A DNA stretch of 64,000 nt, taken from positions 130 to 64,129 of the forward strand of contig CAZAXH010000008.1 in NCBI GenBank assembly GCA_964489065.1. The letters run 5' to 3'. The DNA is from an uncultured Planctomycetales bacterium (GTDB lineage Bacteria; Omnitrophota; Gorgyraeia; Zapsychrales; JANLHA01). This document shows positions 26,709 through 59,702 of this stretch, in pieces. The notes under the pieces were generated by a model. It worked only from the letters and a program-made list of their open reading frames with translations. It made no database searches and had not been told where the DNA came from. Position 1 is the first letter of the stretch; each line of letters opens with the position of its first letter. The position numbers and the translations under genes are program-made.

Positions 26709-26731
26709 TTTTTATTTGAGAGGAGGTCTTT

Positions 26732-29235: not shown

Positions 29236-29267
29236 TAACTTTATCATTCAGGGAGGAGATAGGTACC

Positions 29268-30185: not shown

Positions 30186-30189
30186 TTTT

Positions 30190-36322: not shown

Positions 36323-36347
36323 TGTCCACAAGGAGGATGTCCTTTTC

Positions 36348-37088: not shown

Positions 37089-37270
37089 CCCGCGGTTCAG
37101 CCATATATGAATTCCCTTGCGACGAAAAAATTCTTGGTTTATAGTAAATTAATTTGAGGCGATTTTTTAAGAATGGGGGGATTTGTAAAATACTCGGCCG
37201 ATACAAAAACCGTTTTTAGTGGGCGCTTCCCGGAAAATTGTCATAAGACTTTAATAAGGCAGAAAAAGGC

Positions 37271-38056: not shown

Positions 38057-38133
38057 GCGGGATGGATCTCGGGGTATTATGAGGGTTAAATAACTTTACG
38101 GACCACAAAGATTTACTGAAGGGGTCATGCTCC

Positions 38134-39714: not shown

Positions 39715-39738
39715 ATGTCCTTTTAAATTTGTTTTGAG

Positions 39739-40623: not shown

Positions 40624-41705
40624 TGATTAAAACCGCTGAAATTTTCCGTTATGCTATTCCTCTGCAACCTCCCGTGATGCTCGATGGCCGGCTCTTAAAA
40701 GAACGGGAGGGGTTCTTTATCAAGATTACGGATAATGCCGGAGCCGTGGGATGGGGGGAAGCGGCTTCTCTTCAAGATGGCCTAAAAGAAACCGAAGCGC
40801 AAATGATCAATGCCGCGGCGTTATTAAGGGATCAGCCTCTCCCGGAGGCGATGGAGGAGATGAACGCGATCTATATTAACGGCGTCGCCTTATCGGAGTA
40901 CAAGCCGGCTGTCCAATGGGCGGTTGAAACAGCTTTATTCACGCTCAAAGCCAACAGTCGGGGCCTTCCTTTAGCCAGGATGATTGACCGGCGTTCCGAG
41001 CTTCATGTTCCGGTTAACCGTTTTCTGGTCGGGACATTGGCGGATATTGTCTCTCAGGCCGAGGCCGCGCTGCGGCAGGGCTACCGGACACTTAAAATCA
41101 AAGCGGGGCAGGGGGGGGCGCTTGAGGACGATATTGAACGCGTCCGGGCGGTTAACACCGTCATTGAGAGCAAGGCCCTGCTTCGCGTTGACGCCAACCG
41201 CTCCTGGGAATTGCCGGAGGCGATTGAATTCATCCGGCAGGTCGGCCTGACGACGATTGAATATATAGAAGAGCCCTTGAAAGATCTTTCCCGGGTGGGG
41301 GAATTTTACCAGGAAACACTTATGCCTGTGGCCCTGGACGAATCCATCCAAACGCTGGATCTTGAGCGCATTCAGTCTCTGGACGGGGTTGAGGTCTTGG
41401 TTTTAAAGCCGGCGTTATTAGGCGGGTTTCATGAAACCTGGCAACTGGCCACCCGGGCCAAAGACCGGGGCTTGCGTGTTGTTTTCAGCTCGGTCTTTGA
41501 GTCGGGTTACGGGTTAACCGTGATCGCGCATATGGCCGCCTGCCTGACCAGAAATATTCCGGCCAGCCTGGACACCGGGAAGTTTTTTACCCAGGATGTC
41601 CTGACCGCCCCTTTGACATTTTCTCACGCCAGTATGTCCTTGCAACAGCACAACCTTTTGAATGTTAATTTCAATACGGCTCTTTTGGCCCGGTGCGGGA
41701 TTTAA
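40623..41705 (+). CDS. menC: o-succinylbenzoate synthase (enolase superfamily)
   Basis: Start overlaps menA stop (ATGA). Enolase-superfamily metal ligands (LKIKAG ... DANRSW ... EEP ... LDES) and size typical of MenC. Confidence 0.7.
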   Translation: MIKTAEIFRYAIPLQPPVMLDGRLLKEREGFFIKITDNAGAVGWGEAASLQDGLKETEAQMINAAALLRDQPLPEAMEEMNAIYINGVALSEYKPAVQWAVETALFTLKANSRGLPLARMIDRRSELHVPVNRFLVGTLADIVSQAEAALRQGYRTLKIKAGQGGALEDDIERVRAVNTVIESKALLRVDANRSWELPEAIEFIRQVGLTTIEYIEEPLKDLSRVGEFYQETLMPVALDESIQTLDLERIQSLDGVEVLVLKPALLGGFHETWQLATRAKDRGLRVVFSSVFESGYGLTVIAHMAACLTRNIPASLDTGKFFTQDVLTAPLTFSHASMSLQQHNLLNVNFNTALLARCGI

Positions 41706-41730
41706 CACTCCGTAGGGGCGAAGAAAAATT

Positions 41731-42189
41731 ATGGTTCCTTTAAAATACGCGGTGGTATATAATAAGCCCAGTGAGGATTTCTATATGCCCTGTAAAGATG
41801 CTGCATCCAATATGATCATCAGGCTGGATCATCAGGATCGTTTTATTTCCTTTGAATTCAGTAAAATGACCTGTAGAAGCCTTATTAACGGGGAAACCGG
41901 ATTTCAACGTCATTGCCGGGGAAAAAATATTTTTGAAATCCTGGATTATAATTTTTCTGACCTTGTCCGCGCTTTACACTTGGAAGAGGAAGAACAGCAG
42001 TATATTTTATATCTTGAATGGGATGCCTTAAGAGCCTCTTTGGCCGCTTTTTTTGGGATTGAGAAAACCAATGTCGATCCTGAACGCTGCCTGATTACTT
42101 CGGTGCAACACGACGAAGACGGGATTACTATTTCCGAAATTATCCTGCCCCCCCGGGATCTCCCCGAACTCGCGCCCCGCCCGGCATAA
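41731..42189 (+). CDS. Hypothetical protein, weak resemblance to NifU/IscU-like Fe-S scaffold N-terminal domain
   Basis: Three Cys in contexts PCKD ... MTCRSL ... RHCRG loosely resembling IscU CGD/GCGS/HC; low confidence. Confidence 0.3.
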   Translation: MVPLKYAVVYNKPSEDFYMPCKDAASNMIIRLDHQDRFISFEFSKMTCRSLINGETGFQRHCRGKNIFEILDYNFSDLVRALHLEEEEQQYILYLEWDALRASLAAFFGIEKTNVDPERCLITSVQHDEDGITISEIILPPRDLPELAPRPA

Positions 42190-42223
42190 AGTTTGCATAA
42201 TTTTTCAGCAGGGTCTCCGACCG

Positions 42224-42735
42224 TTAAGTTTCTGAATGGCCCAGAGCCATCACGATTTTCCCGGTCCGAACCATTTCTAAAATACCGTATTTTTTCATTA
42301 AAGCTTCAAACTCGTCCAGTTCGGCCGTCGGCCCAGTCTGCTCGACAATCAACGTGTTGTCGGAGTCGTCCAGGATGCGCGTGCGGTATTTCTTCATGAG
42401 TTTAAGCACGATCGGCCTGTTGGAGGACGACACCTTGATTTTGATCAGCGCTAATTCGGTATGGGTAGAGTCCTGTCCGGTATGCTCGCTGGCATGAATG
42501 ACGTCAATCAGTTTTTGGACCTGTTTAATGATTTGGTCCAGCGTTTCCGGGTCTCCCTGCGCGGTGATCGTCATCCGCGAATAGCGGGGGTTGTAGGCCG
42601 GGGACACGACAAGGGAGTCAATATTATAACCGCGCCGGGCAAAAATATGGGCTATCCGGACCAGAACCCCGGGTTTGTTGGCGACGGTCATACTGATGGT
42701 GTGGATATTTTTACGCTCGATGTTTTCTGATGACA
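42224..42735 (-). CDS. ilvH: Acetolactate synthase small (regulatory) subunit
   Basis: ACT domain start HTISMTVANKPGVLVRIAHIFARRGYNIDSLVV; ATG at 42735 gives ~170 aa, 13 bp after the ilvB stop. Confidence 0.88.
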
Positions 42736-42747
42736 TAGAATACCTCT

Positions 42748-44475
42748 TTATGTGCTGCCGGTTGGCTTCTCGAGTTTTGATTTCGGGGGTTCGATAATCA
42801 TATGATATGCTGATTTCCCCGCCGGGACCATGGGGAAGACGTTGTCTTCCTTGACGACTTCGCAATGCACCAGGGCCGGACCGTGGTGTTTAAGGGCCGC
42901 TTTCAGCACGCTTTCCGCTTCTTCAACTTTCCCGATGTGGTATCCTTTGACCTGGTAGGCCTCCGCCAGTTTGACAAAGTCGGGATTCCCCTCCAGATTC
43001 ACCCCGGAGAGGCGGTTGTCAAAAAACAGCTCCTGCCATTGCCGGACCATGCCGAGATATTTGTTGTCAATAATGATAATTTTCACCGGGAGTTTATGGA
43101 CGAACGCCGTGGCCAGTTCATAAAGCGTCATTTGAAAACCGCCGTCCCCGACAATGGCGACCACCAGTTCTTTGGGCCGCCCGAACTGGGCGCCGATGGC
43201 GGCCGGGAACCCGTAGCCCATTGTCCCGGCCCCGCCGGATGAGAGCCATTGGTCGCTCCGGTCGCAGCGATAAAATTGCGCGGCCCACATCTGATGCTGG
43301 CCGACATCCGTCACCACCGTGGCTGTCCCTTTGGTCAATCGGTAAACCGTATCAATGACATATTGAGCTGTCAGGCCGGCGTTGATGTCATAATGGAGCG
43401 GGAATTCATTTTTGTAATATTCCACTTCCTTGAGCCACTCGGCCGTGTCCAGTTTATCCACGTATTTGATCAGTTCTTTTAAAATAAGACGGGCGTCCCC
43501 GATCAAGGCGCTGTCCGGCTTAATCACTTTCCCGATTTCAGCCGGATCAATATCGATGTGCAGCTTTTTGGCGCCGATGCAGAATTCTTCAGTGTTTCCG
43601 TTGATCCGGTCGTCAAACCGCGACCCGATGGAACAAATAAGGTCGCAGTTGATAAGCGCTTTGTTGGAATACGCCGTGCCGTGCATCCCGATCATCCCGA
43701 GGGAAAGAGCGTGGGTTTCCGGGAAGGCCCCTTTCCCCAAGAGGGTGCAGATCACCGGGGCCTGGAGTTTTTCTGCCAGGGCCCGCACTTCCTGATCCGC
43801 TTTGGCAATGACGGCTCCGTGCCCCACCAGCAGGAGCGGCCGTTTAGCGCCTTTAAACATCCTGGCCATGGTTTTGATGCCTTTGATATTGACTTTGGCG
43901 GCGACGGAGTATCCGGGCAAGTCCATGGGAGGATTGATTGTTTGGGCCGTAAACGGGGCGGAGGAAATATCTTTGGGCAGATCAATCAAGACCGGGCCGG
44001 GCCGGTTGGTGTTCGCGATAAAAAACGCTTCTTTGATGATCCGCGGGATATCATTTGCGTCATGAACCAGATAGCTGTGCTTGACGACCGGCATAGTGAT
44101 GCCGACGATATCCGCTTCCTGGAACGCGTCTTTCCCCAGCATGGCCCGGATCGTCTGTCCCGTCAGGACAATGACCGGGACAGAATCCATCATGGCGGTC
44201 ATAATGCCGGTCACAGCGTTGGTGGCTCCGGGGCCGCTGGTTACGCAAACGACGCCGGGCCTTCCGGTCACGCGAGCGTAACCGTCGGCCATATGCACCG
44301 CCGCTTGTTCGTGCCGCACCAGGATCAGTTTAATTTTAGAGTTGACCAACGCGTCAAAAATGGGGATAACGGCGCCGCCGGAAAGCCCAAAAATATATTC
44401 AACCCCTTGTGCTTCCAGACATTTGATCAGAACCTCTGCGCCATTCAGCTGTTCTTTGGTGGTTTTCTGGGCCAT
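42748..44475 (-). CDS. ilvB: Acetolactate synthase large subunit
   Basis: 575 aa ThDP enzyme; motifs [11 protein letters not shown], and ThDP-binding GDGGFQM ... N. Confidence 0.92.
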
Positions 44476-47239: not shown

Positions 47240-47956
47240 ATGCTTTTTTCTGATTTTTTTAAAAAATGTTTTTTCCGTCCGCCTCAACCGGCCCAACCTG
47301 AACGAGAGGCCGATGCCACGGAGCCGGAAGAGTCGAAGTCCGGGGCAGCCGCTACGCCGGTAACTCCGGCGCAGCCGTTGCCGGAAAAGGGCGTGGCCAC
47401 CCCGGTTGTGCCGGCAGAACCTTCCTCTGTTGCGCCGGCGGCTTCGGAGAGCGAGCCGGTCCAGGGACCGCTCCCGGAGCCTTCACCGCTCGGGCCGGCC
47501 CCTGCGGTAAAAGCATCAGTCAAAAAGGTCTATTTCCTGGGGGGCAGCCAGGAGAAGCTTAATCAGAGGCTTCAGGATGAGTTGAAGAAGATGGGGTTCT
47601 CGTGGATCGATTTGTCTGCGGTTTATATGGAACGGGCTTTGGATGAAATTATGCGGAGCAACCCGGATGTCTTTTTTTCCGTGGTCGTCTTGTCCGGAGA
47701 TGAATTTGTTTACGATAAAAACAGCAAGCCATCGCAGGCCCGGGTTTGTTCCAAGCAAGATATTGTCTTTAAGCTGGGGTATTTGATCGGCCACCACGGG
47801 AAGAGCCACTGTTTTGTGCTTTATAAAGAACAAAAAAGTTTTGCACTGCCAACCAGTTTGATCCACGGTATTTTTACCGTGCTGGATGACGATGTCCGTT
47901 GGAAAGACATGTTGAGATCCCGTCTGGTCGGAGCCGGGTATTCTGTTCCGTGTTGA
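47240..47956 (+). CDS. TIR-like nucleotide-binding domain protein (COG4271/PF10137-like) with Pro/Ala/Glu-rich N-terminal linker
   Basis: KKVYFLGGSQE ... FSVVVLSGDEF ... QDIVFKLGYLIGHHGKSHCFVLY parallels the KVFIGSSSE ... FAIVLLTPDD ... RDNVIFELGLFIG pattern of the TIR-like family; starts 4 bp after mtaB stop. Confidence 0.55.
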   Translation: MLFSDFFKKCFFRPPQPAQPEREADATEPEESKSGAAATPVTPAQPLPEKGVATPVVPAEPSSVAPAASESEPVQGPLPEPSPLGPAPAVKASVKKVYFLGGSQEKLNQRLQDELKKMGFSWIDLSAVYMERALDEIMRSNPDVFFSVVVLSGDEFVYDKNSKPSQARVCSKQDIVFKLGYLIGHHGKSHCFVLYKEQKSFALPTSLIHGIFTVLDDDVRWKDMLRSRLVGAGYSVPC

Positions 47957-48600: not shown

Positions 48601-49122
48601 ATGAAAAAAATACTTTTTACTATAACAATTTGCACGTTGTTAACCCAAACCGTGCCCGGGTATGCGGTCATGGTCCATTATTACGATGAGAACGGGAAGA
48701 TTCACTATGTGAATACTGCCGTGGCCCAGGTTCCTCCTCGGTACATGGATCAAGTCCGGCCTCAATTAGAGGCGGCTGAACGGGCACAAGCCGAAAAGGC
48801 GGAAGAACAAGCGACCTCCGAGATAGACGTCCCGGAAGAGTCGGGAGAGGGTGAAAGCCAGACGCCGAATCCTCCCCAAATTGTCCTTGATGTCCTGACG
48901 AGTTCACACTGCCGGGGATGCATGAGGCTTTTTGCTCAACTGCGCGTGAACAAAATTTTTTTCCGGTCCCACAATATCGAAACGAGTGCCCGGGGGAAAG
49001 AGTTGTACCAGCAGTATCAAGGAATGCCGCTTCCGATTACCATTATCGGCGATGAAGCCGTTTCCGGTCCCGACATCCTCAAGATCAAAGAACTTCTTGA
49101 GAAAATAGGAAAGGAAGAATAA
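48601..49122 (+). CDS. Secreted DUF4124-like protein with C-terminal glutaredoxin-like CxxC domain
   Basis: Signal peptide; VHYYDENGKIHYVNT (DUF4124-like); C-terminal SSHCRGCMRLFAQ ... ITIIGDEAVSG resembling Grx fold. Confidence 0.5.
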   Translation: MKKILFTITICTLLTQTVPGYAVMVHYYDENGKIHYVNTAVAQVPPRYMDQVRPQLEAAERAQAEKAEEQATSEIDVPEESGEGESQTPNPPQIVLDVLTSSHCRGCMRLFAQLRVNKIFFRSHNIETSARGKELYQQYQGMPLPITIIGDEAVSGPDILKIKELLEKIGKEE

Positions 49123-49166: not shown

Positions 49167-49559
49167 GTGATGAGTCATAAGAAAACTGGATTTACTCTAG
49201 TTGAAGTGATGATTGTTATCGCTATTATCGCTCTTTTAGCCGTGATCGCTATCCCGAACCTTTTTCGGGCCCGGATCCAGGCCAATGCTTCGACAGCCCA
49301 GGCCCATTTGAAATCTATCGCCAATTCCCTGGAAAATTACGCGGCTATTCACAGTGTTTATCCCGCCAATACATCCCAACTCCTGGGAGCCAGCCCTCCT
49401 TATTTGAGTATCGACTTTTTTTCGGGAACCCATGCCGGATATTCCTTTACCAGTGTTCTGTCTGATTATGCTTACACGATTACCGCTTCGCCGGAGAATA
49501 CGACGTCCGGGACAAGCACGTTCACTTTGACGACAGGCGGCATCATTTCTGCTTTATAA
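49167..49559 (+). CDS. Prepilin-type N-terminal cleavage/methylation domain protein (type IV pilin / pseudopilin-like), Ser/Thr-rich C-terminus
   Basis: Leader MMSHKKTG|FTLVEVMIVIAIIALLAVIAIPNL (G-FTLVE class III signal). Confidence 0.85.
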   Translation: MMSHKKTGFTLVEVMIVIAIIALLAVIAIPNLFRARIQANASTAQAHLKSIANSLENYAAIHSVYPANTSQLLGASPPYLSIDFFSGTHAGYSFTSVLSDYAYTITASPENTTSGTSTFTLTTGGIISAL

Positions 49560-49663
49560 GTCATTTATATCATGTCCCTACGGGCTTTTTTCCCGCTTAG
49601 AAGCGCGGGGAGCCGGGGGAGTGTGCTATAATATTTCTTATCCGATAACTATTTTTTTATGAA

Positions 49664-50959
49664 ATGGCGCATTTCCTGTTTGTAAAACCCTGTTGGCCGT
49701 ATCCTTACAACAAAGGGGACCATACGTATAACCGTATATGGCCGCCGTTGTCTTTGCTGAATGGTGCGGCGATTTTAGAACGACAAGGTCATGTTGCCCA
49801 TGTTTTGGACGCCCATGCTTTGAGGCTGAATTTGGAGGATATTCCTTCCCGTCTGCAAGGCTACGATACAATTTTTATTACGTCCTCCTGCCTGGATCGC
49901 TGGCAATGCCCTCCTGCTGATATTACGCCGTTTTTGGAAACGGTCAAAAGGGCCAAGCAAGTCACGACCGAAATTTATGTGATGGGCTATCATGGGACGG
50001 TGGAGCCGGAGGGGGTGTTGAGACGCACGCAGGTCAAGGCTGTTTTAAGAGGCGAGCCCGAGCGGATGATTGAAGCTCTGGGAGCCGGGAAGCCTCATTC
50101 GGATATCCCAGGCTTGACATATTTTTCTGCAGGGGAAATAATTTCTTCCGGCGACGGGGAGGTTGTGGACTTGAGTTCCTTGCCCTTGCCGGCGTATCAT
50201 CGAATCGACCGCCGGTTGTATTCTTATGAAATCTTAGGGGATGATTTTGCGCTTTTTGAATTCAGCCGGGGGTGCCCCTATGATTGTAAATTTTGTAATA
50301 AAATCATGTATGGTTCTTCGTGGAGAACCAAAAGCCTCCCGCAGATCATGTCGGAAATTCAGACCGCGGTCGAGCAATATCATTACCGGACAGGATACTT
50401 TTTCGACCTCGAATTTCTCTCCGACCGGGGGCTGGCCGAAAAAATTTGCGATTTTTTAATATCCCAACATTATCCTTTCCAGTGGTGCTGTCAGACACGG
50501 GCTGATTCTCTGGACGCATTTATTCTGGATAAAATGAAACAGGCGGGATGCCGTTTGATCCACATGGGGTTGGAGAGCGCCCAGCAGAAATACTTGGATC
50601 TCTCCGGGAAAAACATGCGGTTGGCCCATGTCCGAGATGCGGTGAGCCGGTGCCGCTCGGCTGGTATTCAATCGCTGGTTTTTCTTCTTTTTGGGTTTGC
50701 CGGAGAAACCCCATCGGAACGGGAGGCCGCGCTGCGCTTCGTTCAGGAATGCGATCCAGATTATGTTTCATTTCATAAACTTTATCCTTACCGGGCAGGA
50801 GCTTTTTATCTCCCGGACTTAAACGAAAATCAGGAGATCGACCGGTTTATCCGAAAAGCTGTTTTGCGGTATTATCTGCGGCCGAAAATTTTACTTCGCA
50901 TGAACCGGGTAACACTGCTGCGTAGCGCCCGGCTTCTTCTGGGGCGCCTGCAATCATGA
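49664..50959 (+). CDS. B12-binding domain radical SAM protein (class B), paralog 2
   Basis: N-terminal B12-binding fold; FEFSRGCPYDCKFCNK radical SAM motif; extended -10 TGTGCTATAAT at 49629-49639; stop overlaps next gene. Confidence 0.75.
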   Translation: MAHFLFVKPCWPYPYNKGDHTYNRIWPPLSLLNGAAILERQGHVAHVLDAHALRLNLEDIPSRLQGYDTIFITSSCLDRWQCPPADITPFLETVKRAKQVTTEIYVMGYHGTVEPEGVLRRTQVKAVLRGEPERMIEALGAGKPHSDIPGLTYFSAGEIISSGDGEVVDLSSLPLPAYHRIDRRLYSYEILGDDFALFEFSRGCPYDCKFCNKIMYGSSWRTKSLPQIMSEIQTAVEQYHYRTGYFFDLEFLSDRGLAEKICDFLISQHYPFQWCCQTRADSLDAFILDKMKQAGCRLIHMGLESAQQKYLDLSGKNMRLAHVRDAVSRCRSAGIQSLVFLLFGFAGETPSEREAALRFVQECDPDYVSFHKLYPYRAGAFYLPDLNENQEIDRFIRKAVLRYYLRPKILLRMNRVTLLRSARLLLGRLQS

Positions 50960-52596
50960 CCTGTCCGTCCAATTCCCAACAACGAGCCCGTATTAAATTT
51001 TTAACCGCCATTGTTGTGTTGCTCTGGATGGCCTTCCTGATTTTTTTTCGTCTTGGCCATTATGCGTTATGGGACGACGAAGCGATCTGCGCTTTGTTCG
51101 GAAAAACTCTTTTTGAAACCGGCGACACATCCGCCGTCCTGGGCCGTAATATCATCGCCTTTAATGACGGGCGGGAACTGGAAAATCTGCGGCAGAGGTA
51201 TGTCCCGCCGTTGCAATTTTATCTTGTGGCCCCGTTGGCCGGGACCACTCGTCATTCGGCCTTTGCGGTTCGCTTCCCGTTTGCGCTCTGCGGGCTTTTT
51301 GCCGTGGCCGTGATCCTGTATTGGCTTTGGGGAACCCGAGCTCCGCTCAAGACCTGGCTCTTGATGTCGGCCGGACTGGCGGGCAATGTATCCCTGATTC
51401 TGTTTTTTCGGCAATGCCGGTATTATGCGCCGATGATGTTGTCTTCTCTTCTCTTAGCCTATGGGTATCTTAGTAACACCGCGAGCAGAAAAAGAATTTG
51501 GCTTATGGCGGGGGCGGCTATTTTGCTTTTGGCCTCAAATTATCTGGCTTATACCGCGGTTATGGCCTGCGGTCTTGTCCATTACCTGATATGGGGGAGA
51601 AAGGACCGCCCTCTTTCAGCATCGGAAGTGGGGTTTTTTGCCTTCACGCAATGTCTGGCCGGCGGGCTCATATTAAGCATTTATAACCCTTTTGGAAAGG
51701 ATGTCTGGGATTATTCCAGTCGTTTCTGGCTCCAGGAAAGGCTTTTGCTTCTTGGGTGGAATTTCCGTGATTTAAACTCCTGTGAAATGGGCATCGGTTT
51801 GTTCATAGGCATGGCCCCGTTATTGTATTTTTTTAAAAAAGACCGCCGACTTATTGAGGCCCCGGTTATGATTTATACTTATATCCTGACAATCTCGATT
51901 TTTTCTCCCCAGCCGGTTAATCAAATGTCAGTGGCTTTTGTCCGTTACCTCTGCCCGTTGATCCCGTTATGCATTTTTACGTCTGTCATCGTGATTCAGG
52001 CCCTGACGGTTAAAGTGCCGTACCTGGCCTTTCCTCTGGCCTTATTGTGTTTTATGACGAATAGTGTGCACGGCGGTTTGTTCTTTCAGCATCCCGATGG
52101 GACGGCTTTCTCTCATGTTATTCAGAGCCGCCCCTGGCGTTCGACGGTTGTGGACTTTTTGCGCGAACTGGCAGCGCCTCGTGAAGGGCCTTATCGTATG
52201 GCGGCTGATTGGATCAAAAGGAATGTGAAGGAGGGGGCAAGCGTCCTAGCCGTCCCCGGCTACACCGTTTACCCGCTGATTTTTCATGCCCCTCACGCGG
52301 TCTATGCCTGGCAGCTCTCGGGAAACGAAACGGGCCGGCAGTTTCAGCATTTGCCGGATATCCATTTCCGGGGCCGGGTCCGGCCTGATTATATTATTGT
52401 TTTTGGGCCGTCGATCGAGGTTGCCGGTTTGCTTGACCAACAAACCGGCGCAGCAAGATATATTGCTGTTGAGCGCCTGGATGTTTACTGGGCTGACCTT
52501 ATCCGGCCGGAACTTTTCTGGCATTCTTTTTCCCCTGTCAGGAATTATAACCCGGATACGGAATCGATTGTTATTTACAAGAAGGCATCCCGTTGA
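50956..52596 (+). CDS. ArnT/PMT-like GT-C fold membrane glycosyltransferase, paralog 2
   Basis: Polytopic; N-terminal periplasmic-loop acidic motif LWDDEAICALFGKTLFETGD and YVPPLQFYLVA resembling PMT_2/ArnT signatures; translationally coupled to the rSAM gene (ATGA). Confidence 0.65.
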   Translation: MTCPSNSQQRARIKFLTAIVVLLWMAFLIFFRLGHYALWDDEAICALFGKTLFETGDTSAVLGRNIIAFNDGRELENLRQRYVPPLQFYLVAPLAGTTRHSAFAVRFPFALCGLFAVAVILYWLWGTRAPLKTWLLMSAGLAGNVSLILFFRQCRYYAPMMLSSLLLAYGYLSNTASRKRIWLMAGAAILLLASNYLAYTAVMACGLVHYLIWGRKDRPLSASEVGFFAFTQCLAGGLILSIYNPFGKDVWDYSSRFWLQERLLLLGWNFRDLNSCEMGIGLFIGMAPLLYFFKKDRRLIEAPVMIYTYILTISIFSPQPVNQMSVAFVRYLCPLIPLCIFTSVIVIQALTVKVPYLAFPLALLCFMTNSVHGGLFFQHPDGTAFSHVIQSRPWRSTVVDFLRELAAPREGPYRMAADWIKRNVKEGASVLAVPGYTVYPLIFHAPHAVYAWQLSGNETGRQFQHLPDIHFRGRVRPDYIIVFGPSIEVAGLLDQQTGAARYIAVERLDVYWADLIRPELFWHSFSPVRNYNPDTESIVIYKKASR

Positions 52597-52895
52597 AAAT
52601 TACCGATTATTTCAGCCATTTTATCCCGCCTTCGCGGAAGACCATGGGCATGCCCGTGGATGAATACGAGAGGTTCGCGGGGTCTTCTTCTTTGGGGATG
52701 TTCGCACGCATGTTAAGCGCTCTCAGATTGCTCCGCAAAAAGAGTTGTTAACAGAAGATCCCTGTCTCCCAAGGGCGTGGGGCTCCATAAACAAAATAAA
52801 AAAGTAATGGTTAATGAAAGAATATGAGGTAAAATTTGAAGTCAAGTTCTTTGAGAGGCCGATGAAGGGAGAACGGCACACTTCCGGATAAGCGT

Positions 52896-53600
52896 ATGCA
52901 ACAACCTTTTTTTTCAATATCTGTCATCCTGCCCGTTTATAATGAGGGGGAAAACATCGCGGACACGGTTGCCCACGTCGCCAGCTTTTTAAACGGGCAG
53001 CCGGTTTTCGATAAGCATGAAATCATCGTGATTGATGACGGGAGTGCGGATGACACTCCGGCCATATTAAATACCCTTTGTCAGCGGTATCCAAATTTAA
53101 AAACTTTTCGGCATAACAAAAATCTTGGATACGGGGCTGCCCTTGTGTCGGGGATCAAACAGGCTGTTTCAGAATGGGTCCTTCTGATGGATGCGGACGG
53201 GCAATTTAAACTTGACGCCCTGCTGGACATGATTCCGTATCTTGATCATTATGATATCCTGGCAGGATTCCGGGCGAAAAGGACAGATTCGCTCTATAGA
53301 ATCGTTTTGGGGCGGACTTACAGCCGCCTGGTAGCCCTGTTGTTCAAGCTTGATCTTCTTGATATTAATTGCGGGTTTAAACTTTTTAGAAGAAACAGTA
53401 TCAATGTGGAAACGCTTAATGCGCACGGCGGCGTTTTTTACACGGATTTCTTTATCAAAGCCCGTAACCAGGGCTGCCGGGTCAAACAGATTCCGGTTGC
53501 GCACTTCCCCCGGGAGAAAGGGAAACAAACCGGGGCGAGTATCAAGGTTATTTTTGCCGCTGTGGTTGATATTGTCCGTCTCCTGTCTGGCCGGGAATGA
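52896..53600 (+). CDS. GT2 family glycosyltransferase (polyprenyl-phosphate sugar synthase, Dpm1/ArnC-like)
   Basis: ISVILPVYNEGENI ... VIDDGSADDT ... LMDADGQ (DXD); size and motifs of polyisoprenyl-phosphate glycosyltransferases. Confidence 0.8.
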   Translation: MQQPFFSISVILPVYNEGENIADTVAHVASFLNGQPVFDKHEIIVIDDGSADDTPAILNTLCQRYPNLKTFRHNKNLGYGAALVSGIKQAVSEWVLLMDADGQFKLDALLDMIPYLDHYDILAGFRAKRTDSLYRIVLGRTYSRLVALLFKLDLLDINCGFKLFRRNSINVETLNAHGGVFYTDFFIKARNQGCRVKQIPVAHFPREKGKQTGASIKVIFAAVVDIVRLLSGRE

Positions 53601-53672
53601 AGTTTTCAGGCCGGGTGACAAGAATAAAATTCATTGTGATTTTTTTGTTTCATAAAAAATTCCGGAGAAATT

Positions 53673-54914
53673 ATGACGGTAGGATTGATGCGCAGACTGG
53701 ACTTCTGGATCGGGGTTCCCTTTTGCTTTCTTTTGTCTATTTTTCAGCTTCTGCAAAAACCTTTCCAGAAGGGCCCGGTACCGGGCAAGCCTCTCAAGAA
53801 GGTGCTTTTCCTGGAGTTATCTGAAATAGGAAGCACGATCCTGTCTTATCCGGCCATGCAAAAACTGAAAGAGCTGTATCCTGAAAACGAATTGTATTTT
53901 TGGATCTTTGCTGATAATCAGGATGCGGTTCATGTGCTTGGCACGGTTGCCAGAGAAAATGTCTTGACCATACGGACCGGCAGTTTTTTGGCCTTTTGTA
54001 ATGATATTGTCCGCAATCTTCAGAGGATCCGGCGGGAACAGATTGACGCCATCGTGGATATGGAGCTTTTTTCAAGGTCCAGCAGTATTTTGGCTTTTCT
54101 GACCCGGGCCCGCATCCGTATCGGATTTGGGACCTTCGCGCAAGAGGGACTTTATCGGGGAAGTTTACGCACGCATGAGGTTTCTTATAACCCTTATCAG
54201 CATATTGCCCAGAATTATGTCGCCTTGATTTATGCTTTGAAATCCTCCCCCGGGCAATTTCCCTGCGTGAAAGAAAACTGGCAATCATCGCCGGCGCCGT
54301 TAACGTTACCGGTGCTTGAGTCTCCCGAAGGACGAAAGGCGGCGATGATGGATATTCTGCGTCGGGAAAATCCTCACATCGACCATTGCCGGCAAAAAGT
54401 CGTGATTCACCCCGGGATTCATGAGGCGTTACCTCTGCGTCAGTGGCCGATTGAGAACTACTTGAAGTTGGCGGAAAAATTATCTTCCCGGCCGGACGTA
54501 ATGATTATATTCGCCGGGGTGACTGGCAAGGCGAAGGACGCCGGGGGATACCATGAAAAGCTGCGCGGCCTCCGGACAATTAATTTGATCGGGAAAACCC
54601 GTATCCCGGATTTGATCGATTTGTTCAATCTGTCTAATTTGTTGATAAGCCATGATGGGGGCATCATTCATATTGCTTCCCTGACACGGATTCCTGTTAT
54701 CGCTATTTTCGGGCCGGAAACGCCTGTTTTATATGGCCCGCTTAAAGAGAATAAAATTATTTTTTATAAACCTTTTTCATGCAGCCCGTGCCTGACAGCT
54801 TATAATCATCGCATATCTCATTGTAAAGAAAATCGTTGTGTGCGTTCAATTCCTGTGGAGGATGTGTATCAAGGCGCAGTAAAAATTTTGAATCAAGAGT
54901 TGGCTATGCTTTAA
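53673..54914 (+). CDS. GT9 family glycosyltransferase (heptosyltransferase-like)
   Basis: KKVLFLELSEIGSTILSYPAMQ N-terminus and C-terminal GxDGG-like ISHDGGIIHIASL ... IFGPETP pattern of ADP-heptose:LPS heptosyltransferases. Confidence 0.7.
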   Translation: MTVGLMRRLDFWIGVPFCFLLSIFQLLQKPFQKGPVPGKPLKKVLFLELSEIGSTILSYPAMQKLKELYPENELYFWIFADNQDAVHVLGTVARENVLTIRTGSFLAFCNDIVRNLQRIRREQIDAIVDMELFSRSSSILAFLTRARIRIGFGTFAQEGLYRGSLRTHEVSYNPYQHIAQNYVALIYALKSSPGQFPCVKENWQSSPAPLTLPVLESPEGRKAAMMDILRRENPHIDHCRQKVVIHPGIHEALPLRQWPIENYLKLAEKLSSRPDVMIIFAGVTGKAKDAGGYHEKLRGLRTINLIGKTRIPDLIDLFNLSNLLISHDGGIIHIASLTRIPVIAIFGPETPVLYGPLKENKIIFYKPFSCSPCLTAYNHRISHCKENRCVRSIPVEDVYQGAVKILNQELAML

Positions 54915-55230
54915 ATATTTGAAAAATATGTGGTTATTTTTTCTTTGGGGAAGCTGTCCCTGCGGGGGGATTTATAAAATGAACTTGCTGTCTGTGCTCC
55001 TACAAATTATACTTATATTGTAATAAAAGATTAAGTTTTCTTACTGCCGTCTGGTATATTTTAAAGAATGAAAATAGGTGGGGTTATTTCTAAAAAATCC
55101 TTTGATTTTTCGTTTTTTACATGCTTAAATGATACTGGGTTTAATTATATTTTTTATCAGTAATATCCTCTAGATTTCATGAGTTTTTCAGGAAATTAAC
55201 GCAGAACAAGGGGAAGGGGGGGGGCGCCGG

Positions 55231-55503
55231 ATGTCACGGAAAAAACGTTTGTGGTTTGGCGGGATTCTGGTTTTCGTGCAGTTACTGATAATATTGAGCC
55301 TGTCCCTCGTTGGCCCCAAAACACCCATAACTCCCGTTAAAGAAGCAGATGCTCAATGTATGACTTTTTGGCTGAGTGCCGCCAATAACGCTGTGCCCAC
55401 ATGTCCCAGTGGTACTCTTTTGGGGTATGCATATACTGGCATAGTGGCGGTGTATGGAGGAACGGCAACTCGATACGTCGGATTATGCGCAAGGGATTTG
55501 TAA
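55231..55503 (+). CDS. Small secreted Cys-containing peptide, paralog A (90 aa precursor)
   Basis: Sec-type signal peptide; shared core TPVKEADAQC.xFWL.AANN.VP.C..G......Y..G.V.VYGG.A.RYV.LC with the adjacent paralog. Confidence 0.55.
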   Translation: MSRKKRLWFGGILVFVQLLIILSLSLVGPKTPITPVKEADAQCMTFWLSAANNAVPTCPSGTLLGYAYTGIVAVYGGTATRYVGLCARDL

Positions 55504-55535
55504 TTTATCGCCAATGTTCAAAAGGAGGCTGTTTG

Positions 55536-55802
55536 ATGTTAAGGGAAAAAATTCTTTGGTGTGCGGCAGCCCTAGTTATTCTTCAGTTATTTTTGGTTTT
55601 AGGCACGACCCTCACCGAAACGCAAACATCCGTAACTCCGGTGAAGGAAGCTGACGCGCAATGTATCCGATTCTGGCTTGATGCCGCCAACAACACTGTT
55701 CCGGGCTGCTCCGGCGGCGTCGTTGTCAGTTATGTCCAAAGCGGTACGGTTCCGGTCTATGGGGGCTCCGCGGCTCGATACGTCGCGTTGTGTTCCATCT
55801 AA
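55536..55802 (+). CDS. Small secreted Cys-containing peptide, paralog B (88 aa precursor)
   Basis: RBS AAGGAGG before the ATG at 55536; about 50% identity to paralog A including all three Cys positions. Confidence 0.55.
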   Translation: MLREKILWCAAALVILQLFLVLGTTLTETQTSVTPVKEADAQCIRFWLDAANNTVPGCSGGVVVSYVQSGTVPVYGGSAARYVALCSI

Positions 55803-55892
55803 GGCACGATTTATGACCGTTATTTTTCCCGAACCGCTGAAAGAAATGATAACGTACCGTGTCCCCCGATACTGCCCGCATATGTTTAAGGC

Positions 55893-57584
55893 ATGCTGAA
55901 TTTGCAGACAGCTTCTTCATTATTTCCTCAAACACAATTTAACAGGTTGAAAACTTCCCTTACAGTTTCTCTTCTGGCCAAGGTGATCCTGATTTTATTC
56001 CTTCTTGTGGCTGCTGGAATTTTCAGGTTTTACAATCTTGGCCTGTACGACCTGACCTTCGATGAACTCGGGACAGAAATGTACACTTTTCAGGCCGTGG
56101 ATAAAGTGGCACGTTTATCCGGGCAGAGCCATTTTACTGTTTTGTCCGAACAGATGAAAAATGATCCGCATTCTCCACTTTATTATTTTATTATTTATTA
56201 TTTCAGCAAATATGGGGGGGATGATGGGGCGCGTCTGCGCCTGTTATCGGTGATTTTGAGCCTGAGTACATGCTTGCTTTTTTTCTGTTTTTCGACACTG
56301 TTCCTTAACTTCCGCGGGAGCGTTCTGGGCATGGGCTTGCTGGCGATTCATCCCTTGCACATCTGGTATGCCCAGGAAGCCAGGATGTACGCGTCGGTCG
56401 GCTTTTTTGTCCTTTTGATGGCGACGATGTTTGTATTGGCGGTGCGTACAGATAAGATTCGGCTTTGGATCCTGTTCCTCGTGACAGGGGCGCTTGCTTT
56501 GGTGGCCAGTTATTTTACCGTTTTCTTATTAATAGCCATGGGGTTAGTCGTGTTGCTGCCCAATAACCGCCGTTATTTATGGAAATGGACTTTTTCGGTG
56601 ATAGGGATGGTTGTTATCCTCTTGTTGTTGCGGCCGATTTTTTTCAGCCAGTTTAACTTTGTAAAACACAGTTTCTGGATACCACAGCCTTCCTTTGTAA
56701 CCCTCTTCCTCACCCAAATGATTTTTCATCAGGGATTTTCGGCGACATGTTCCCAGTATTTTTCCGGCCTGATCCTGTTCTCCAGTCTTTTCGTCCTTGG
56801 GGTGTTATCTTTATTTTCTTTAAACCGCAAGAAAACGTTTATTCTGTTCATTTTTATCGCCGTCCCGTTCTCCTTGGCGTATTTTATTTCCAAGTATTAT
56901 GTCCCGATTTATATTCATCGGCAGCTAATGGTTTTTTCGCCTTTTTACTATCTTGGCATAGCCCAGGGAATAGAAAGGATTTTACCCCGCCGTTATGGGC
57001 CCCTAGTTTTTCTTCTAGCTGCGGCCCTGCTGTTAAGCAGCCTCCGGAATTATTATGCCGGGTATATGTTTTCCCATCCTTTTCGGGCGGATCTGCTCGG
57101 TGGCGTATATCCCAAAAAACGCTACCAGGAACTGTTCCGCTCTTTGAACCAGGCGGCCCTTAAGAACGATTCGCTGATTGCTGGCGACCTGCAGTCTTAT
57201 ATCTTATTGCGGGCCTATCTTGAAAGACAGGAGGGACGAGGGAATCTGTCCCCGGACAGGTTATGGTTCGTGTTCGCCCCGCAATATGTTTTTCAGTATG
57301 ATCAGCGTTATATGGGTATTGATGCCCCTGTGAAACAACTGTCACCCTCCCAATTTAAAAATTTTTACGCCTATCAGTTGCCCCCGGACCGGGCGATCAC
57401 GATGCATCCTGCTCAGTTAAAGCCCATGACATTGGGACGATTATGGGTGGTGACCTCCAGTTGGGATATGGACAGATCCTTGGGAATGGATGCTGAAGAG
57501 CTTTTAATCCAATTAAGGCAGCTTTCTCATCGGCAGTCTTCTAGCTGTAAAGACGGTATTTGTGTTGACCTCTTTGCCCCCTGA
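55893..57584 (+). CDS. ArnT/PMT-like GT-C fold membrane glycosyltransferase, paralog 3
   Basis: 563-aa polytopic protein; N-terminal loop YDLTFDELGTEMY acidic motif; similar topology to the other two. Confidence 0.55.
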   Translation: MLNLQTASSLFPQTQFNRLKTSLTVSLLAKVILILFLLVAAGIFRFYNLGLYDLTFDELGTEMYTFQAVDKVARLSGQSHFTVLSEQMKNDPHSPLYYFIIYYFSKYGGDDGARLRLLSVILSLSTCLLFFCFSTLFLNFRGSVLGMGLLAIHPLHIWYAQEARMYASVGFFVLLMATMFVLAVRTDKIRLWILFLVTGALALVASYFTVFLLIAMGLVVLLPNNRRYLWKWTFSVIGMVVILLLLRPIFFSQFNFVKHSFWIPQPSFVTLFLTQMIFHQGFSATCSQYFSGLILFSSLFVLGVLSLFSLNRKKTFILFIFIAVPFSLAYFISKYYVPIYIHRQLMVFSPFYYLGIAQGIERILPRRYGPLVFLLAAALLLSSLRNYYAGYMFSHPFRADLLGGVYPKKRYQELFRSLNQAALKNDSLIAGDLQSYILLRAYLERQEGRGNLSPDRLWFVFAPQYVFQYDQRYMGIDAPVKQLSPSQFKNFYAYQLPPDRAITMHPAQLKPMTLGRLWVVTSSWDMDRSLGMDAEELLIQLRQLSHRQSSSCKDGICVDLFAP

Positions 57585-57611: not shown

Positions 57612-57640
57612 TTGACATTAAATATAAGGAAAATTATAAT
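57612..57640 (+). promoter_or_regulatory. Perfect consensus sigma70 promoter (TTGACA-17 bp-TATAAT) upstream of the OLD-family gene
   Basis: TTGACA 57612-57617; TATAAT 57635-57640. Confidence 0.6.
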
Positions 57641-57731: not shown

Positions 57732-59702
57732 ATGAAATTAAAAAAGTTTAAAATAACCCATTATAAATCTATCGTAGACAGCGGCTATTGCTGTCTTTCC
57801 TCTGACCTGACGATTTTGCTGGGGAAAAATGAATCGGGGAAAACGGCTATTTTGGAGGCCCTGCGCGATTTTGACCGGCAAAGCATGTCAATCTCCGGGG
57901 ATGCCTTCCCGGTCAGTGGTAATGGGGACGAGCCTAAACTTGAAATGGTTTTTTCGATGAGGGGAGAGGAGTTGAAGTCCATTCAGGAAACAACAGGCAT
58001 AAAATTGGAAGGAAAAATATCCGATCATGTGCTTGAAAACGGCGTCGTGCTAGAAAAGGATTGCCGGGGTTCGTATGATTTAAAAGACGAAAAACTGGCG
58101 GGACTTCTTGAGGCAGCTAATCAGGGCCAACGCTATTTTATCCGCTGTGAAGAAAAAAAACTTGTTGAGCTTCTAAAAGGGTATTCTGTGCCTGATTTAA
58201 ACCTGGAGGCCCCGGTCCCGGTGATCCAAGACAGAGTGCAACAACTTTTTGTCACCATTAAATCCTTGCTGCCGCTGCTGAAGGACGAGAAGCTGCAGCA
58301 GGCGGTCATTGAGTCGCTGCGTTTTATTAAACAGGAGTCCAAAAATCTTCCGGAAAAAGAACAGGAAAGGGATGTGATGTCCCTCTTTTTAAACACAGTC
58401 GTTGAACGGCTGCCGCATTTTATCCTTTTTAATGAGTTTAACGGCATGCTGCCTTTTGAGATTGCGCTGGCTGACATAAAATCTAATCAGGCCGTCATGG
58501 ATTTCGCTAAGATTGCCCGGCTTGATATTGACAAGGTCATTGCCACCGAGGACACCCAGAAACGTTTAAATATCCTGAATCGTCATTCCGCCTGCATTAG
58601 CGGGGATTTTCTTAATTATTGGGGACAGAATAAAATGGAACTGGTCATCTGGCCGGAGGGGGATAAGCTGCTTTTTGGAGTTAAAGAATCCGGCAAGACT
58701 GAAATTTTTAAAGTGGAACAACGCAGTAAAGGTTTCCAGTGGTTTCTGTCCTTTTATCTTCGTCTGAACAGCCAGCGGGGGAGCAACAATATCATCCTCA
58801 TTGATGAGCCGGGAATGAACCTTCATGCCAAAGCCCAGTTAGAAATCATTAAAGTGCTTGAAAGCATGAGCGCCGAGGATAACCAGATTATTTTCAGCAC
58901 GCATTCGCCGTATCTGATCGATGCCCTGCGTCTTGACCGGCTTCGGTTAGTTGTAAAAGATGCGCAGAAGGGGAGCGTTATTGAAAGCAATCTGAGTGTC
59001 AATGCGGATAATGAAACCTTGATGCCGTTGGTGTCGGTTTTAAATATGAATTTAAACCAGAATTTGTTCGGGATTGATGACGGGCGCACGCATGTTATCG
59101 TAGACGGCCTGGCGAATTATTATTTCCTTGAAGGTTTGCGGATATGCATCAAAGATATTCCTTGGGGCCAATATCATTTTATCCCGTCTGCGGACCGGAC
59201 CAATGTCCGCCAGATCGCCTCTTATATGGTCGGGTGCGATATGCCGTTTAAAGTCGTCTTAGAGCATGACGCCGACGGCCAGGCCCTGGCCGTTCTCCTA
59301 AAAGACACTTTTGGGCTGGAGAACTCCCGTGTTATTTTTATCGGCCCGGTTTTGGGGGAGCGGTTTGAGGACCTTTTTTCCCGGGAGGACTTTTTTAAAT
59401 ATTTCTTGGAAGAGCCTTTTGAGGATATGCCTCCCGGTTCTAATTCGAATTTTTCTGAAAATAAGAATCGTGTTTGGCTTGCCAAAAAATTTTCAGAACG
59501 CGCTACAAATCAACAGGATATTTTGACGCTATCTGACAAAACCCACACATCATTCCATAATTTTTCAAGGCAACTGCTCGGCGAACTCCCAGGGGAAGCC
59601 CCGGGCACTAAAAAGAAATCTTTGTTGTCTGAGATAAGGCGTTTCCCGTTCTTCCCCTTTCCTAAAAGAAGTCATGAGATGACGGAAACAATCAGGCCAT
59701 AA
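57732..59702 (+). CDS. OLD-family ATP-dependent endonuclease-like protein (ABC/AAA_15-21 ATPase N-domain plus C-terminal TOPRIM-like domain); candidate antiphage defence protein (class 1 OLD or fused PARIS AriA-AriB-like)
   Basis: P-loop LLGKNESGKTAILEAL; Walker B/D-loop IILIDEPGMNLH; H-loop FSTHSPY; C-terminal HVIVDGLANYYFLEG and VLEHDADGQ (DxD) consistent with TOPRIM; lower GC than flanks. Confidence 0.6.
   Translation: MKLKKFKITHYKSIVDSGYCCLSSDLTILLGKNESGKTAILEALRDFDRQSMSISGDAFPVSGNGDEPKLEMVFSMRGEELKSIQETTGIKLEGKISDHVLENGVVLEKDCRGSYDLKDEKLAGLLEAANQGQRYFIRCEEKKLVELLKGYSVPDLNLEAPVPVIQDRVQQLFVTIKSLLPLLKDEKLQQAVIESLRFIKQESKNLPEKEQERDVMSLFLNTVVERLPHFILFNEFNGMLPFEIALADIKSNQAVMDFAKIARLDIDKVIATEDTQKRLNILNRHSACISGDFLNYWGQNKMELVIWPEGDKLLFGVKESGKTEIFKVEQRSKGFQWFLSFYLRLNSQRGSNNIILIDEPGMNLHAKAQLEIIKVLESMSAEDNQIIFSTHSPYLIDALRLDRLRLVVKDAQKGSVIESNLSVNADNETLMPLVSVLNMNLNQNLFGIDDGRTHVIVDGLANYYFLEGLRICIKDIPWGQYHFIPSADRTNVRQIASYMVGCDMPFKVVLEHDADGQALAVLLKDTFGLENSRVIFIGPVLGERFEDLFSREDFFKYFLEEPFEDMPPGSNSNFSENKNRVWLAKKFSERATNQQDILTLSDKTHTSFHNFSRQLLGELPGEAPGTKKKSLLSEIRRFPFFPFPKRSHEMTETIRP

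Follow-up and report, generated by a model that had tools for sequence, protein, structure and literature searches.

What are two tiny secreted cysteine peptides doing among a run of glycosyltransferase genes? The question is raised by positions 49167-57584 of a 64,000-nucleotide stretch of contig CAZAXH010000008.1, from an uncultured bacterium placed in the Omnitrophota; this whole stretch is called the window below. Open reading frames (ORFs) and domains of the locus were read by hidden Markov model (HMM) annotation with Pfam and NCBIfam. They comprise a prepilin-like protein, a radical S-adenosylmethionine (SAM) enzyme, two membrane glycosyltransferases of the GT-C fold (GTC1 and GTC2), soluble glycosyltransferases of families GT2 and GT9, and the peptides pep1 and pep2. 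Comparison with related loci suggests that the peptides are functionally tied to the clade of GT-C enzymes that includes GTC2. We propose that sugar is transferred in the periplasm from a lipid-linked donor and that the peptides serve GTC2 as dedicated acceptors, an interpretation that we consider about evenly balanced between right and wrong.

The tie between peptides and GTC2 is proposed because of a clade-specific association, which is the strongest evidence of this analysis. In a neighbour-joining tree of 42 non-identical GTC2-like proteins from genome and metagenome scans, all peptide-associated GTC2 genes fall into one clade, and one to four tandem peptide genes lie directly upstream, on the same strand, in 16 of the 17 members of that clade, whereas none of the 25 homologues outside it has them. 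The pair also persists through inversions relative to the GT9 and GTC1 genes (relatives are designated by locus numbers; here L090, L091, L103 and L015), and L015 has a duplicated GTC2, the two genes each with their own peptides. The preliminary description of this DNA had considered both the pilin and the small peptides as acceptors; by their co-occurrence with a single GT-C clade, the peptides are the better candidates. The features of the locus are as follows.

49167..49559 (+): type IV prepilin-like protein, 130 residues (PF07963 N_methyl, 8.6e-9; TIGR02532; motif KTG/FTLVE, cleaved at the slash)
49664..50959 (+): class-B-type radical SAM enzyme, 431 residues, with an N-terminal B12-binding-like domain (PF04055, 2.5e-18)
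50956..52596 (+): GTC1, a 546-residue GT-C-fold membrane glycosyltransferase of an unannotated family, overlapping the radical SAM stop (ATGA)
52896..53600 (+): soluble GT2, 234 residues, of the polyprenyl-phosphate sugar synthase type (PF00535, 7e-32)
53673..54914 (+): GT9-family glycosyltransferase, 413 residues (PF01075, 1.3e-24)
55084..55136 (+): conserved non-coding block, promoter-like (near-invariant among the window and relatives)
55231..55503 (+): pep1, a 90-residue precursor with a Sec-type signal (family HMM, architecture, AlphaFold2 model)
55536..55802 (+): pep2, an 88-residue pep1 paralogue (53% identity to pep1)
55893..57584 (+): GTC2, a 563-residue PMT_2-type GT-C membrane glycosyltransferase of the peptide-associated clade (PF13231, 6.7e-8)

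The eight ORFs lie exactly where the preliminary description had put them, the overlap between the radical SAM gene and its neighbour is present (50956-50959), and so is the AT-rich gap of 316 bp (54915-55230, G+C content (GC) 0.335). The "third GT-C" of that description was a miscount, the locus having two GT-C genes. The gap holds a block of about 53 nt (55084-55136) that is near-invariant among the window, L093, L010 and L003, while synonymous sites of the flanking genes are saturated (synonymous divergence, dS, about 1). The block contains TTGATT (55102-55107), a 17-nt spacer and TGcTTAAAT (-10 at 55125-55130), and is probably the promoter of the peptide/GTC2 unit; the peptides and GTC2 are thereby suggested to form a transcription unit of their own. 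The sigma-70 consensus scan did not list this block. Promoter-like counts were about two standard deviations above those of shuffled sequence (20 vs 12.4 ± 3.3) and are uninformative for the locus, the one perfect promoter lying outside it; terminator-like counts were at the shuffled expectation (17 vs 15.0 ± 4.1). A second conserved non-coding block, common to L093, L010 and L003, lies about 100 nt 5' of the promoter-like one (55000-55029, CAAATTATACTTATATTGTAATA) and may be an operator or UP element.

The peptides are, as first described, tandem paralogues with predicted secretion. The predicted cleavage site of pep1 is KEADA/QC, and its mature part has 49 residues and 3 Cys; pep2, which has AGGAGG 8 nt 5' of its ATG, has a mature part of 47 residues, also with 3 Cys. 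Neither matches a Pfam or NCBIfam model. A word-indexed search of 5.8 billion proteins with pep1 returned only 3 clusters, and when 1.8 billion representatives were searched exhaustively by HMM, a four-sequence profile gave 6 matches, of which 4 were credible; the matches P0246 and P0249 were rejected as family members, being low-complexity repeat artefacts. The family was instead recovered with a custom HMM run on the DNA of the fetched loci, which replaced a finder based on regular expressions that gave false positives in high-GC genomes (L025, L029, L035 and others).

Precursors of this family share a K/R-rich N-terminal segment, a hydrophobic helix and a small-x-small site, mostly A-x-A. 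A Cys follows within 1-5 residues, the mature part mostly has 39-60 residues, and the last Cys lies 2-6 residues from the C-terminus; exceptions are L095 4600-4938, where Cys is the final residue, and two long or fused forms, L015 8735-9127 and L022 3756-4259. In the last of these, the peptide-family domain is fused to a Cys-rich tail like that of the large Flp-type prepilins described below. The two precursors of the window would leave the cytoplasm through Sec and be cleaved by signal peptidase I at A-x-A/Q-C. The Cys framework consists of C1, an optional C2-x4-C3 pair, C4 and C5, so that the Cys count is mostly odd: 3 or 5 in 35 of 40 distinct peptides (31 of 36 counted by script, and 4 more, which the script left uncut, by hand).

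The ratio of nonsynonymous to synonymous divergence (dN/dS) is 0.12-0.21 for pep1 in pairs from the window clade with dS near 1, and 0.06-0.10 for pep2 in divergent pairs. In the closest pair, the window and L093 (dS 0.13-0.19, hence few substitutions), it is 0.51 for pep1 and 0.31 for pep2. By this substitution pattern, the peptides are real genes under purifying selection. In the AlphaFold2 model of pep1, a transmembrane (TM) helix (residues 3-27) is joined by a linker of low confidence to an antiparallel sheet of three strands (44-52, 62-74 and 77-89; predicted local distance difference test score (pLDDT) 85-95). A fold search of this model against the PDB gave nothing significant, the best E value being 0.16.

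The preliminary description had read GT2 plus GT-C as the two-step logic of glycosylation from a lipid-linked sugar, and both halves of that logic hold. The best PDB relatives of the GT2 are ArnC (8e-18, residues 4-227), archaeal DPMS (4e-14) and GtrB (1e-9); the ArnC and DPMS alignments cover nearly the full length (4-230) and that of GtrB covers 6-170. Its best NCBIfam models are PgfS (8.5e-22, 77.7 bits against a cut-off of 500), ArnC and PpgS, all below their equivalog cut-offs. PgfS, ArnC, PpgS, DPMS and GtrB are all polyprenyl-phosphate sugar synthases, and the window protein is of this GtrB/ArnC/DPMS type, while reaching no NCBIfam equivalog cut-off and being without the TM helices that ArnC and GtrB have at the C-terminus.

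The two membrane proteins are, as claimed earlier, GT-C enzymes; in each, an acidic DE motif follows the first TM helix. GTC1 has no Pfam or NCBIfam match, and its AlphaFold model has a clear GT-C fold (pLDDT 91). Among its homologous clusters, which number at least 267 and a few of which match PMT_2 or PF10131, the motif LGHYALWDDE after the first TM helix is invariant. The PMT_2 match of GTC2 is above the cut-off, a mannosyltransferase model reaches 31.5 bits against its 900-bit cut-off, and residues R45, D53, D57 and E58 are invariant. BLASTP detects nothing between the two proteins; their distant homology is visible only by profile-profile comparison (hhalign 97%, E 1.2e-10, 439 columns), and neither profile matched a PDB sequence. 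The locus has the GT-C fold with an extracytoplasmic acidic catalytic motif, and a PMT/PMT_2 N-terminal domain with its DE motif in loop 1, and lacks the luminal MIR domain and C-terminal PMT_4TMC module of the GT39 protein mannosyltransferases. GTC1 homologues are common outside Omnitrophota, in Planctomycetota, Verrucomicrobiota, Elusimicrobia, Binatia and Syntrophales, where most of them occur singly or as tandem paralogues, in some cases beside a GT9 or GT2 gene and never with peptides.

The neighbourhood conservation that the preliminary description had named as a check is found: the radical SAM enzyme, both GT-Cs, GT2, GT9 and the peptides are co-conserved across divergent Omnitrophota loci. 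Close relatives (at least 70% identity: L001, L003, L009, L010, L093 and L094) retain the whole region with its flanks and are uninformative. With changed order and orientation, the cluster recurs in L089, L090, L091/92 and L095, where the radical SAM enzyme is 48-55% and GTC2 about 30-35% identical to that of the window. All of these carry a radical SAM gene, a GT9, a PMT_2 GT-C and small ORFs; L089-L092 also hold a GTC1-type gene and a GT2, and L095, whose contig ends about 1.3 kb 5' of the radical SAM gene, has neither. Larger clusters on distant contigs add a DegT aminotransferase, with or without a fused or adjacent 4,6-dehydratase/epimerase, and an AsnB-like amidotransferase. Further radical SAM enzymes, of class B and of the SPASM type, are present there too, together with GDSL esterases and with GT-Cs that are YfhO- or AftD-like or combine PMT_2 with TPR. 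Ten non-redundant loci were selected for their peptide genes; when their ORFs were clustered all against all, without supervision, GTC2 was found in 10, GTC1 in 8, the radical SAM enzyme in 7, GT9 in 7, DegT (which the window locus does not have) in 6 and GT2 in 5. The window locus is best read as a reduced copy of a cluster conserved in Omnitrophota and made of two co-inherited modules.

In the pathway that we propose, module 1 would consist of the radical SAM enzyme, GTC1, GT2 and GT9. On the cytoplasmic face, the soluble ArnC/DPMS-like GT2 would load a sugar onto polyprenyl phosphate, and the class-B radical SAM enzyme may remodel that sugar or donor, with C-methylation and rearrangement as examples. 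The donor would be flipped by a flippase encoded outside the locus, and GTC1 would pass the sugar on to a general acceptor in the envelope, which GT9 may partly build. Module 2, with its own promoter-like element, would supply the two small precursors, which Sec would export and signal peptidase I would cleave; the cleaved peptides are predicted to fold into a three-strand sheet of about 47 residues held by cysteines, and GTC2, encoded directly downstream, would glycosylate them with the same kind of lipid-linked donor.

Several points weigh against this pathway. The mature peptides have no invariant Ser or Thr, so no acceptor site can be named, and the glycan on them is predicted from gene content. 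One member of the GTC2 clade, L097, has no upstream peptide gene on checking by hand. GT2 lies within the fetched flanks of only half of the 10 peptide loci, and no ORF of the window locus matches a flippase family of the GtrA, ArnE/F or MATE type; the relative L089 carries a PF03706 LPG_synthase_TM protein. GT9 enzymes are classically enzymes of the lipopolysaccharide (LPS) core. In structural comparison, GTC1 is equally similar to ArnT and Pmt4. Finally, the GTC1 homologues of Planctomycetota and Verrucomicrobiota mostly stand alone, with neither peptides nor a radical SAM gene, and GTC1 must therefore have a general, non-peptide acceptor.

Part of this material would also fit an Arn-type modification of LPS, lipid A or a glycolipid, in which GT9 builds the core, GT2 makes an undecaprenyl-phosphate sugar, the two GT-Cs decorate the glycolipid on the periplasmic side, and the peptides are co-transcribed envelope proteins or regulators. 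We regard this as a serious rival to peptide glycosylation, possible if somewhat doubtful. Among solved structures, the GT2 is closest to ArnC, and the best models for GT9, the identity of which had been correctly claimed, are LPS heptosyltransferases: it reaches 89.8 bits with TIGR02195 (WaaF), below the cut-off of 134.6, and matches 3tov and WaaF (1psw) in the PDB, so that it carries the GT9 domain as a divergent member of the family with its best equivalog score under the cut-off. The DegT aminotransferase of the larger clusters, fused or adjacent to a 4,6-dehydratase/epimerase, recalls amino-sugar (Arn-like) pathways, and GTC1 and GT9 are paired without peptides in loci of Verrucomicrobiota and Binatia. 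What an Arn-type modification leaves unexplained is that the peptides follow one GT-C clade through rearrangements (the 16 of 17 against 0 of 25 above) and that they occur as one to four divergent tandem copies. Moreover, no equivalog-level match to ArnT, ArnC, WaaC or WaaF was found, GTC1 has no ArnT-model match that would place it in GT83, Pmt4 and ALG12 score at least as high as ArnT in comparison with it, and the window locus has no ArnA, ArnB or ArnD gene.

The role of the radical SAM enzyme bears on a further alternative. The preliminary description had called it a B12-binding radical SAM enzyme; the radical SAM core is present (motif CxxxCxxC as GCPYDCKFC), whereas the B12-binding domain reaches only 28.4 bits (1.6e-6) against a Pfam cut-off of 32.1, so that its assignment to the cobalamin-dependent class B combines a genuine core with a sub-threshold domain match and no equivalog reached. 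Its best NCBIfam matches, HpnJ (2.6e-36, 125 bits against a cut-off of 577.6), TIGR04295 (3e-35) and also BchE, are all far under the cut-offs. The best PDB relative is AprD4 (2.5e-14), which is not known to use cobalamin. Orthologues have about 432 residues and 43-76% identity; phylum-level names, given for a minority of them, are all Omnitrophota/Omnitrophica, and one sequence is labelled Nanoarchaeum sp.

In distant loci, these orthologues adjoin GTC1, GT2 or GT9 rather than the peptides. In L172, GT2 and after it GT9 come behind the radical SAM gene, with no GT-C and no peptides within range, and L013 has it with GTC1 only; a 522-residue gene 3' of the radical SAM gene in L173 was rejected as a GTC1 (hhalign probability 2%). 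Outside the peptide clade, class-B radical SAM paralogues lie directly 5' of GT-C paralogues, often overlapping them (L101 991-4194, L105 208-3277, L107 133-2854, L109 8512-11635 and L110 5938-9815), and some contigs with such pairs hold 4-6 of these radical SAM genes. Their recurrence upstream of other GT-C paralogues (L101, L105, L109 and L110) suggests a general radical SAM/GT-C partnership. Because the orthologues track GTC1, GT2 or GT9 and the paralogues pair with other GT-Cs, the comparison favours a radical SAM enzyme that would act on the sugar or lipid donor side rather than on the peptides. Precedents for donor-side chemistry include enzymes of the HpnJ type, acting on a lipid-linked sugar, and C-methylation of sugars of the GenK type (PMC4039129, PMC9204698). 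The window has a second class-B radical SAM gene at 10-1449 (B12-binding 4.6e-10, Radical_SAM 5.9e-20; 3e-25 to the enzyme of the locus), adjoined at 1449-3920 by a Na+/H+ exchanger fused to an EIIA-like domain of the phosphotransferase system.

It is quite unlikely, in our view, that the peptides are bacteriocins or similar peptides made by ribosomes and modified after translation (RiPPs), modified by the radical SAM enzyme before export (by methylation or thioether formation), with GTC2 as an immunity or maturation factor. They are indeed secreted, rich in Cys and quick to diverge, and their genes lie in tandem; their clusters also hold radical SAM genes of class B and, in relatives, of the SPASM type, and the window enzyme matches the RiPP enzymes ApyD (2e-28) and TIGR03975 (9e-15), all far under the cut-offs. 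The co-distribution of radical SAM enzyme and precursors expected of a RiPP fails in the loci compared, however: L013, L172 and L173 have radical SAM orthologues without peptides, and the peptide loci L011, L014 and L103 have no radical SAM gene inside the fetched flanks. The precursors also have ordinary Sec signals and AxA sites and no leader peptides, Pfam annotation gave no SPASM match for the window enzyme, and among the Pfam and NCBIfam matches of the locus there is neither a RiPP recognition element nor a gene for a protease or ABC exporter, no test specific to recognition elements having been made.

As for the prepilin, its identity is secure by the matches listed above, and its place in the system, which the preliminary description had proposed, is not. 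It adjoins the radical SAM gene in L001, L003, L009 and L010 only and is missing from 7 divergent loci with radical SAM orthologues, so that, among the loci compared, this pilin is not conserved beside a glycosyltransferase as in type IV pilin glycosylation units of the pilA-tfpW/tfpO type. A TfpW-like modification of this genuine prepilin, which has a Ser/Thr-rich C-terminus and lies 104 bp 5' of the radical SAM gene, is very unlikely even with Flp-type prepilins of 31-49 Cys standing beside the peptide/GTC2 unit in four distant loci, since its adjacency is limited to relatives of at least about 70% identity, the flank of which (MtaB-like, TIR-like and glutaredoxin (Grx)-like genes) is syntenic anyway, and it is gone from L089-L095, L013, L172 and L173.

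The Flp-type proteins are an observation in their own right. They are large, Flp/Tad-type prepilin-like proteins with the motif G/QS[IV][IV]EY[AS]L, after which the 31-49 Cys follow, and they have no Pfam match (L014 2734-4080; L022 1176-2297 and 2373-3752; L015 3-1145; L103 11652-12776, minus strand). Since they adjoin the peptide/GTC2 unit in these four divergent loci, secreted Cys-rich proteins are, as far as gene content tells, a recurrent theme of peptide/GTC2 loci.

Peptide glycosylation by GTC2 could be extended to a bolder proposal, which we consider unlikely: Omnitrophota would make a new class of periplasmically matured glycopeptides, Sec-exported Cys-stapled beta-sheets that a dedicated GT-C modifies with a radical SAM-remodelled polyprenyl-phosphate sugar, in one to four diverging copies per lineage. 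The sugar might then sit on a conserved unpaired Cys or another unusual site, and the products might be surface or secreted effectors, or bacteriocin-like agents, of putatively predatory or parasitic nanobacteria.

The surroundings give no sign of a bounded, recently acquired island, since the flanks are syntenic in relatives. A lower-GC island had been claimed; GC is 0.475 in the locus against 0.528 upstream, yet it is lower still downstream (0.441), the radical SAM and GTC1 genes are at about 0.50, near the window mean of 0.512, and 13% of equally long windows have GC as low as the locus. An Rfam scan of window positions 45-64 kb gave no match. Proteins identical or near-identical to those of the locus occur in Logan, NCBI and ENA assemblies, and the nearest named genomes are metagenome-assembled genomes of Candidatus Omnitrophota from sludge or digester samples.

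Directly 5' of the prepilin, positions 48601-49122 encode a signal-peptide protein with a C-terminal Grx-like CxxC domain (TIGR02196, 5e-6). It could be a periplasmic thiol-disulfide oxidoreductase acting on Cys peptides; as a conserved partner for disulfide formation it was ruled out, being unconserved outside the close clade. Further 5', and syntenic with the cluster in close relatives, lies a gene (47240-47956) whose product is rich in Pro and Ala in its N-terminal half and has a TIR-like domain at the C-terminus (PF10137 CAP12/Pycsar TIR, 3.6e-9; PADLOC PDC-S35, 1.3e-14). Downstream of GTC2, here and in L010, L089, L093 and L094, is a gene for a 656-residue OLD/AriA/GajA/PtuA-like AAA_15/AAA_21 ATPase (57732-59702), preceded at 57612-57640 by a perfect sigma-70 consensus (TTGACA, 17 nt, TATAAT); it is probably a stand-alone defence-type gene outside the glycosylation cluster. 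The rest of the window is ordinary chromosome with a type I-C CRISPR-Cas system and array, menaquinone genes, aconitases, chorismate synthase, Dus and an MtaB-like enzyme. The CRISPR-Cas genes (Cas3, Csd1/Cas8c, Cas7 and Cas1) lie at 24411-31850 and the array at about 32470-32967, with the repeat GTCGCGCCCTTCGCGGGCGCGTGGATTGAAAC. Menaquinone-type genes (UbiE/MenG methyltransferase, UbiA/MenA prenyltransferase, MenC-like, and a MenD-like thiamine pyrophosphate enzyme) occupy 36141-44475, a run split by a PIF1-like helicase (38134-39714), and an IS200-like Y1 transposase (4107-4712) lies within the lowest-GC kilobase of the window (GC 0.409).

In the literature on radical SAM enzymes with GT-Cs and on glycosylation in Omnitrophota, we found no description of the cluster, the peptide family or the radical SAM/GT-C partnership. 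The general principle, periplasmic glycosylation from lipid-linked donors with gene-linked acceptors, is known; the pairing of these peptides with a GT-C is without a description that we could find. To our knowledge, a protein or peptide acceptor is known for only a few GT-C enzymes: oligosaccharyltransferase (OST)/PglB, PMT, TMTC, DPY19, TfpW and the Pgf/PgtC systems. If the proposal is true, a GT-C clade tied to its own family of secreted peptides of about 47 residues would be a compact enzyme-substrate pair from an uncultured phylum. The analysis also assigns the GT-C fold to a large unannotated membrane-protein family spanning the Planctomycetes-Verrucomicrobia-Chlamydiae (PVC) phyla, and the pairing of class-B radical SAM enzymes with various GT-C paralogues points to a chemistry of lipid-linked sugars that would be, as far as we know, new for envelope glycans.

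Among known systems, HpnI, HpnK and HpnJ combine a GT2 with a radical SAM enzyme of the B12 type, by which a lipid-linked amino sugar is remodelled during synthesis of the hopanoid cyclitol ether. With HpnJ as the best NCBIfam match of the window enzyme, this is a precedent for a class-B radical SAM enzyme working on a GT2-made lipid-linked sugar. However, the score falls so far short of the HpnJ cut-off that the window enzyme is not HpnJ, the locus has no hopanoid genes, and the partner here is a GT-C. The Arn pathway (ArnB, ArnC and ArnT), which puts 4-amino-4-deoxy-L-arabinose (L-Ara4N) on lipid A, is similar in that the GT2 is nearest to ArnC in the PDB, GTC1 is structurally ArnT-like and related clusters add DegT and a dehydratase; it differs in the lack of equivalog-level matches, in the absence of ArnA, ArnB, ArnD, ArnE and ArnF from the window locus, and in having no counterpart of the peptide linkage.

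Glycocins (sublancin, pallidocin and glycocin F) are S- or O-glycosylated, disulfide-stapled bacteriocins (PMC6405829, PMC12457901). Like them, the locus has small ribosomal peptides whose Cys framework is conserved, with a glycosyltransferase encoded in the cluster, and the odd Cys count of its peptides, which leaves one Cys unpaired, is a further likeness. In sublancin, S-glycosylation is on the fifth Cys. Glycocin clusters, however, use a cytoplasmic SunS-type GT2, double-glycine leaders, ABC exporters and helical hairpins, none of which was found at the locus; here there are a Sec signal, a predicted beta-sheet, a periplasmic GT-C and no ABC exporter, and the GT2 matches SunS with an E value of only 0.0023 (16.8 against 350 bits).

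The three-component systems GtrA/GtrB/GtrC, CsbB/GtcA/YfhO and polyprenyl-phosphoribose synthase/MATE/GT136 decorate polysaccharides or teichoic acids (PMC11127046, PMC8035078). They have in common with the locus a GT2-type polyprenyl-phosphate sugar synthase and GT-C-fold transferases with a periplasm-facing acidic motif, whereas the locus has no flippase gene and adds two GT-C families that look unrelated, a conserved class-B radical SAM partner and a dedicated family of peptide genes.

Closest in arrangement are two systems with gene-linked acceptors. In the pgf cluster of Streptococcus mutans, the GT2 PgfS and the GT-Cs PgfM1 and PgfM2 are encoded in the same cluster as their adhesin substrates Cnm, CnaB and CbpA (PMC12041528). 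As in the locus, a GT2 and a GT-C would act on exported proteins with substrate genes in the cluster, and PgfS is the top NCBIfam match of the window GT2. The Pgf GT-Cs, however, are of the YfhO type, no radical SAM or GT9 gene is present, and the substrates are large adhesins with Ser/Thr-rich disordered regions, whereas the peptides of the locus are Cys-stapled sheets of 45-55 residues. The GT-C enzyme TfpW modifies group IV pilins of Pseudomonas aeruginosa with D-arabinofuranose (bioRxiv 10.1101/2020.04.19.049825). The acceptor there is a type IV pilin, whereas here the conserved upstream genes encode Sec-signal peptides and the pilin of the window is not conserved. We take tfpW to lie directly 3' of pilA, which encodes its substrate, and its donor to be a lipid-linked sugar. 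By analogy, the gene arrangement of the locus, with its candidate acceptors encoded directly upstream of GTC2, mirrors both the pgf cluster and pilA-tfpW.

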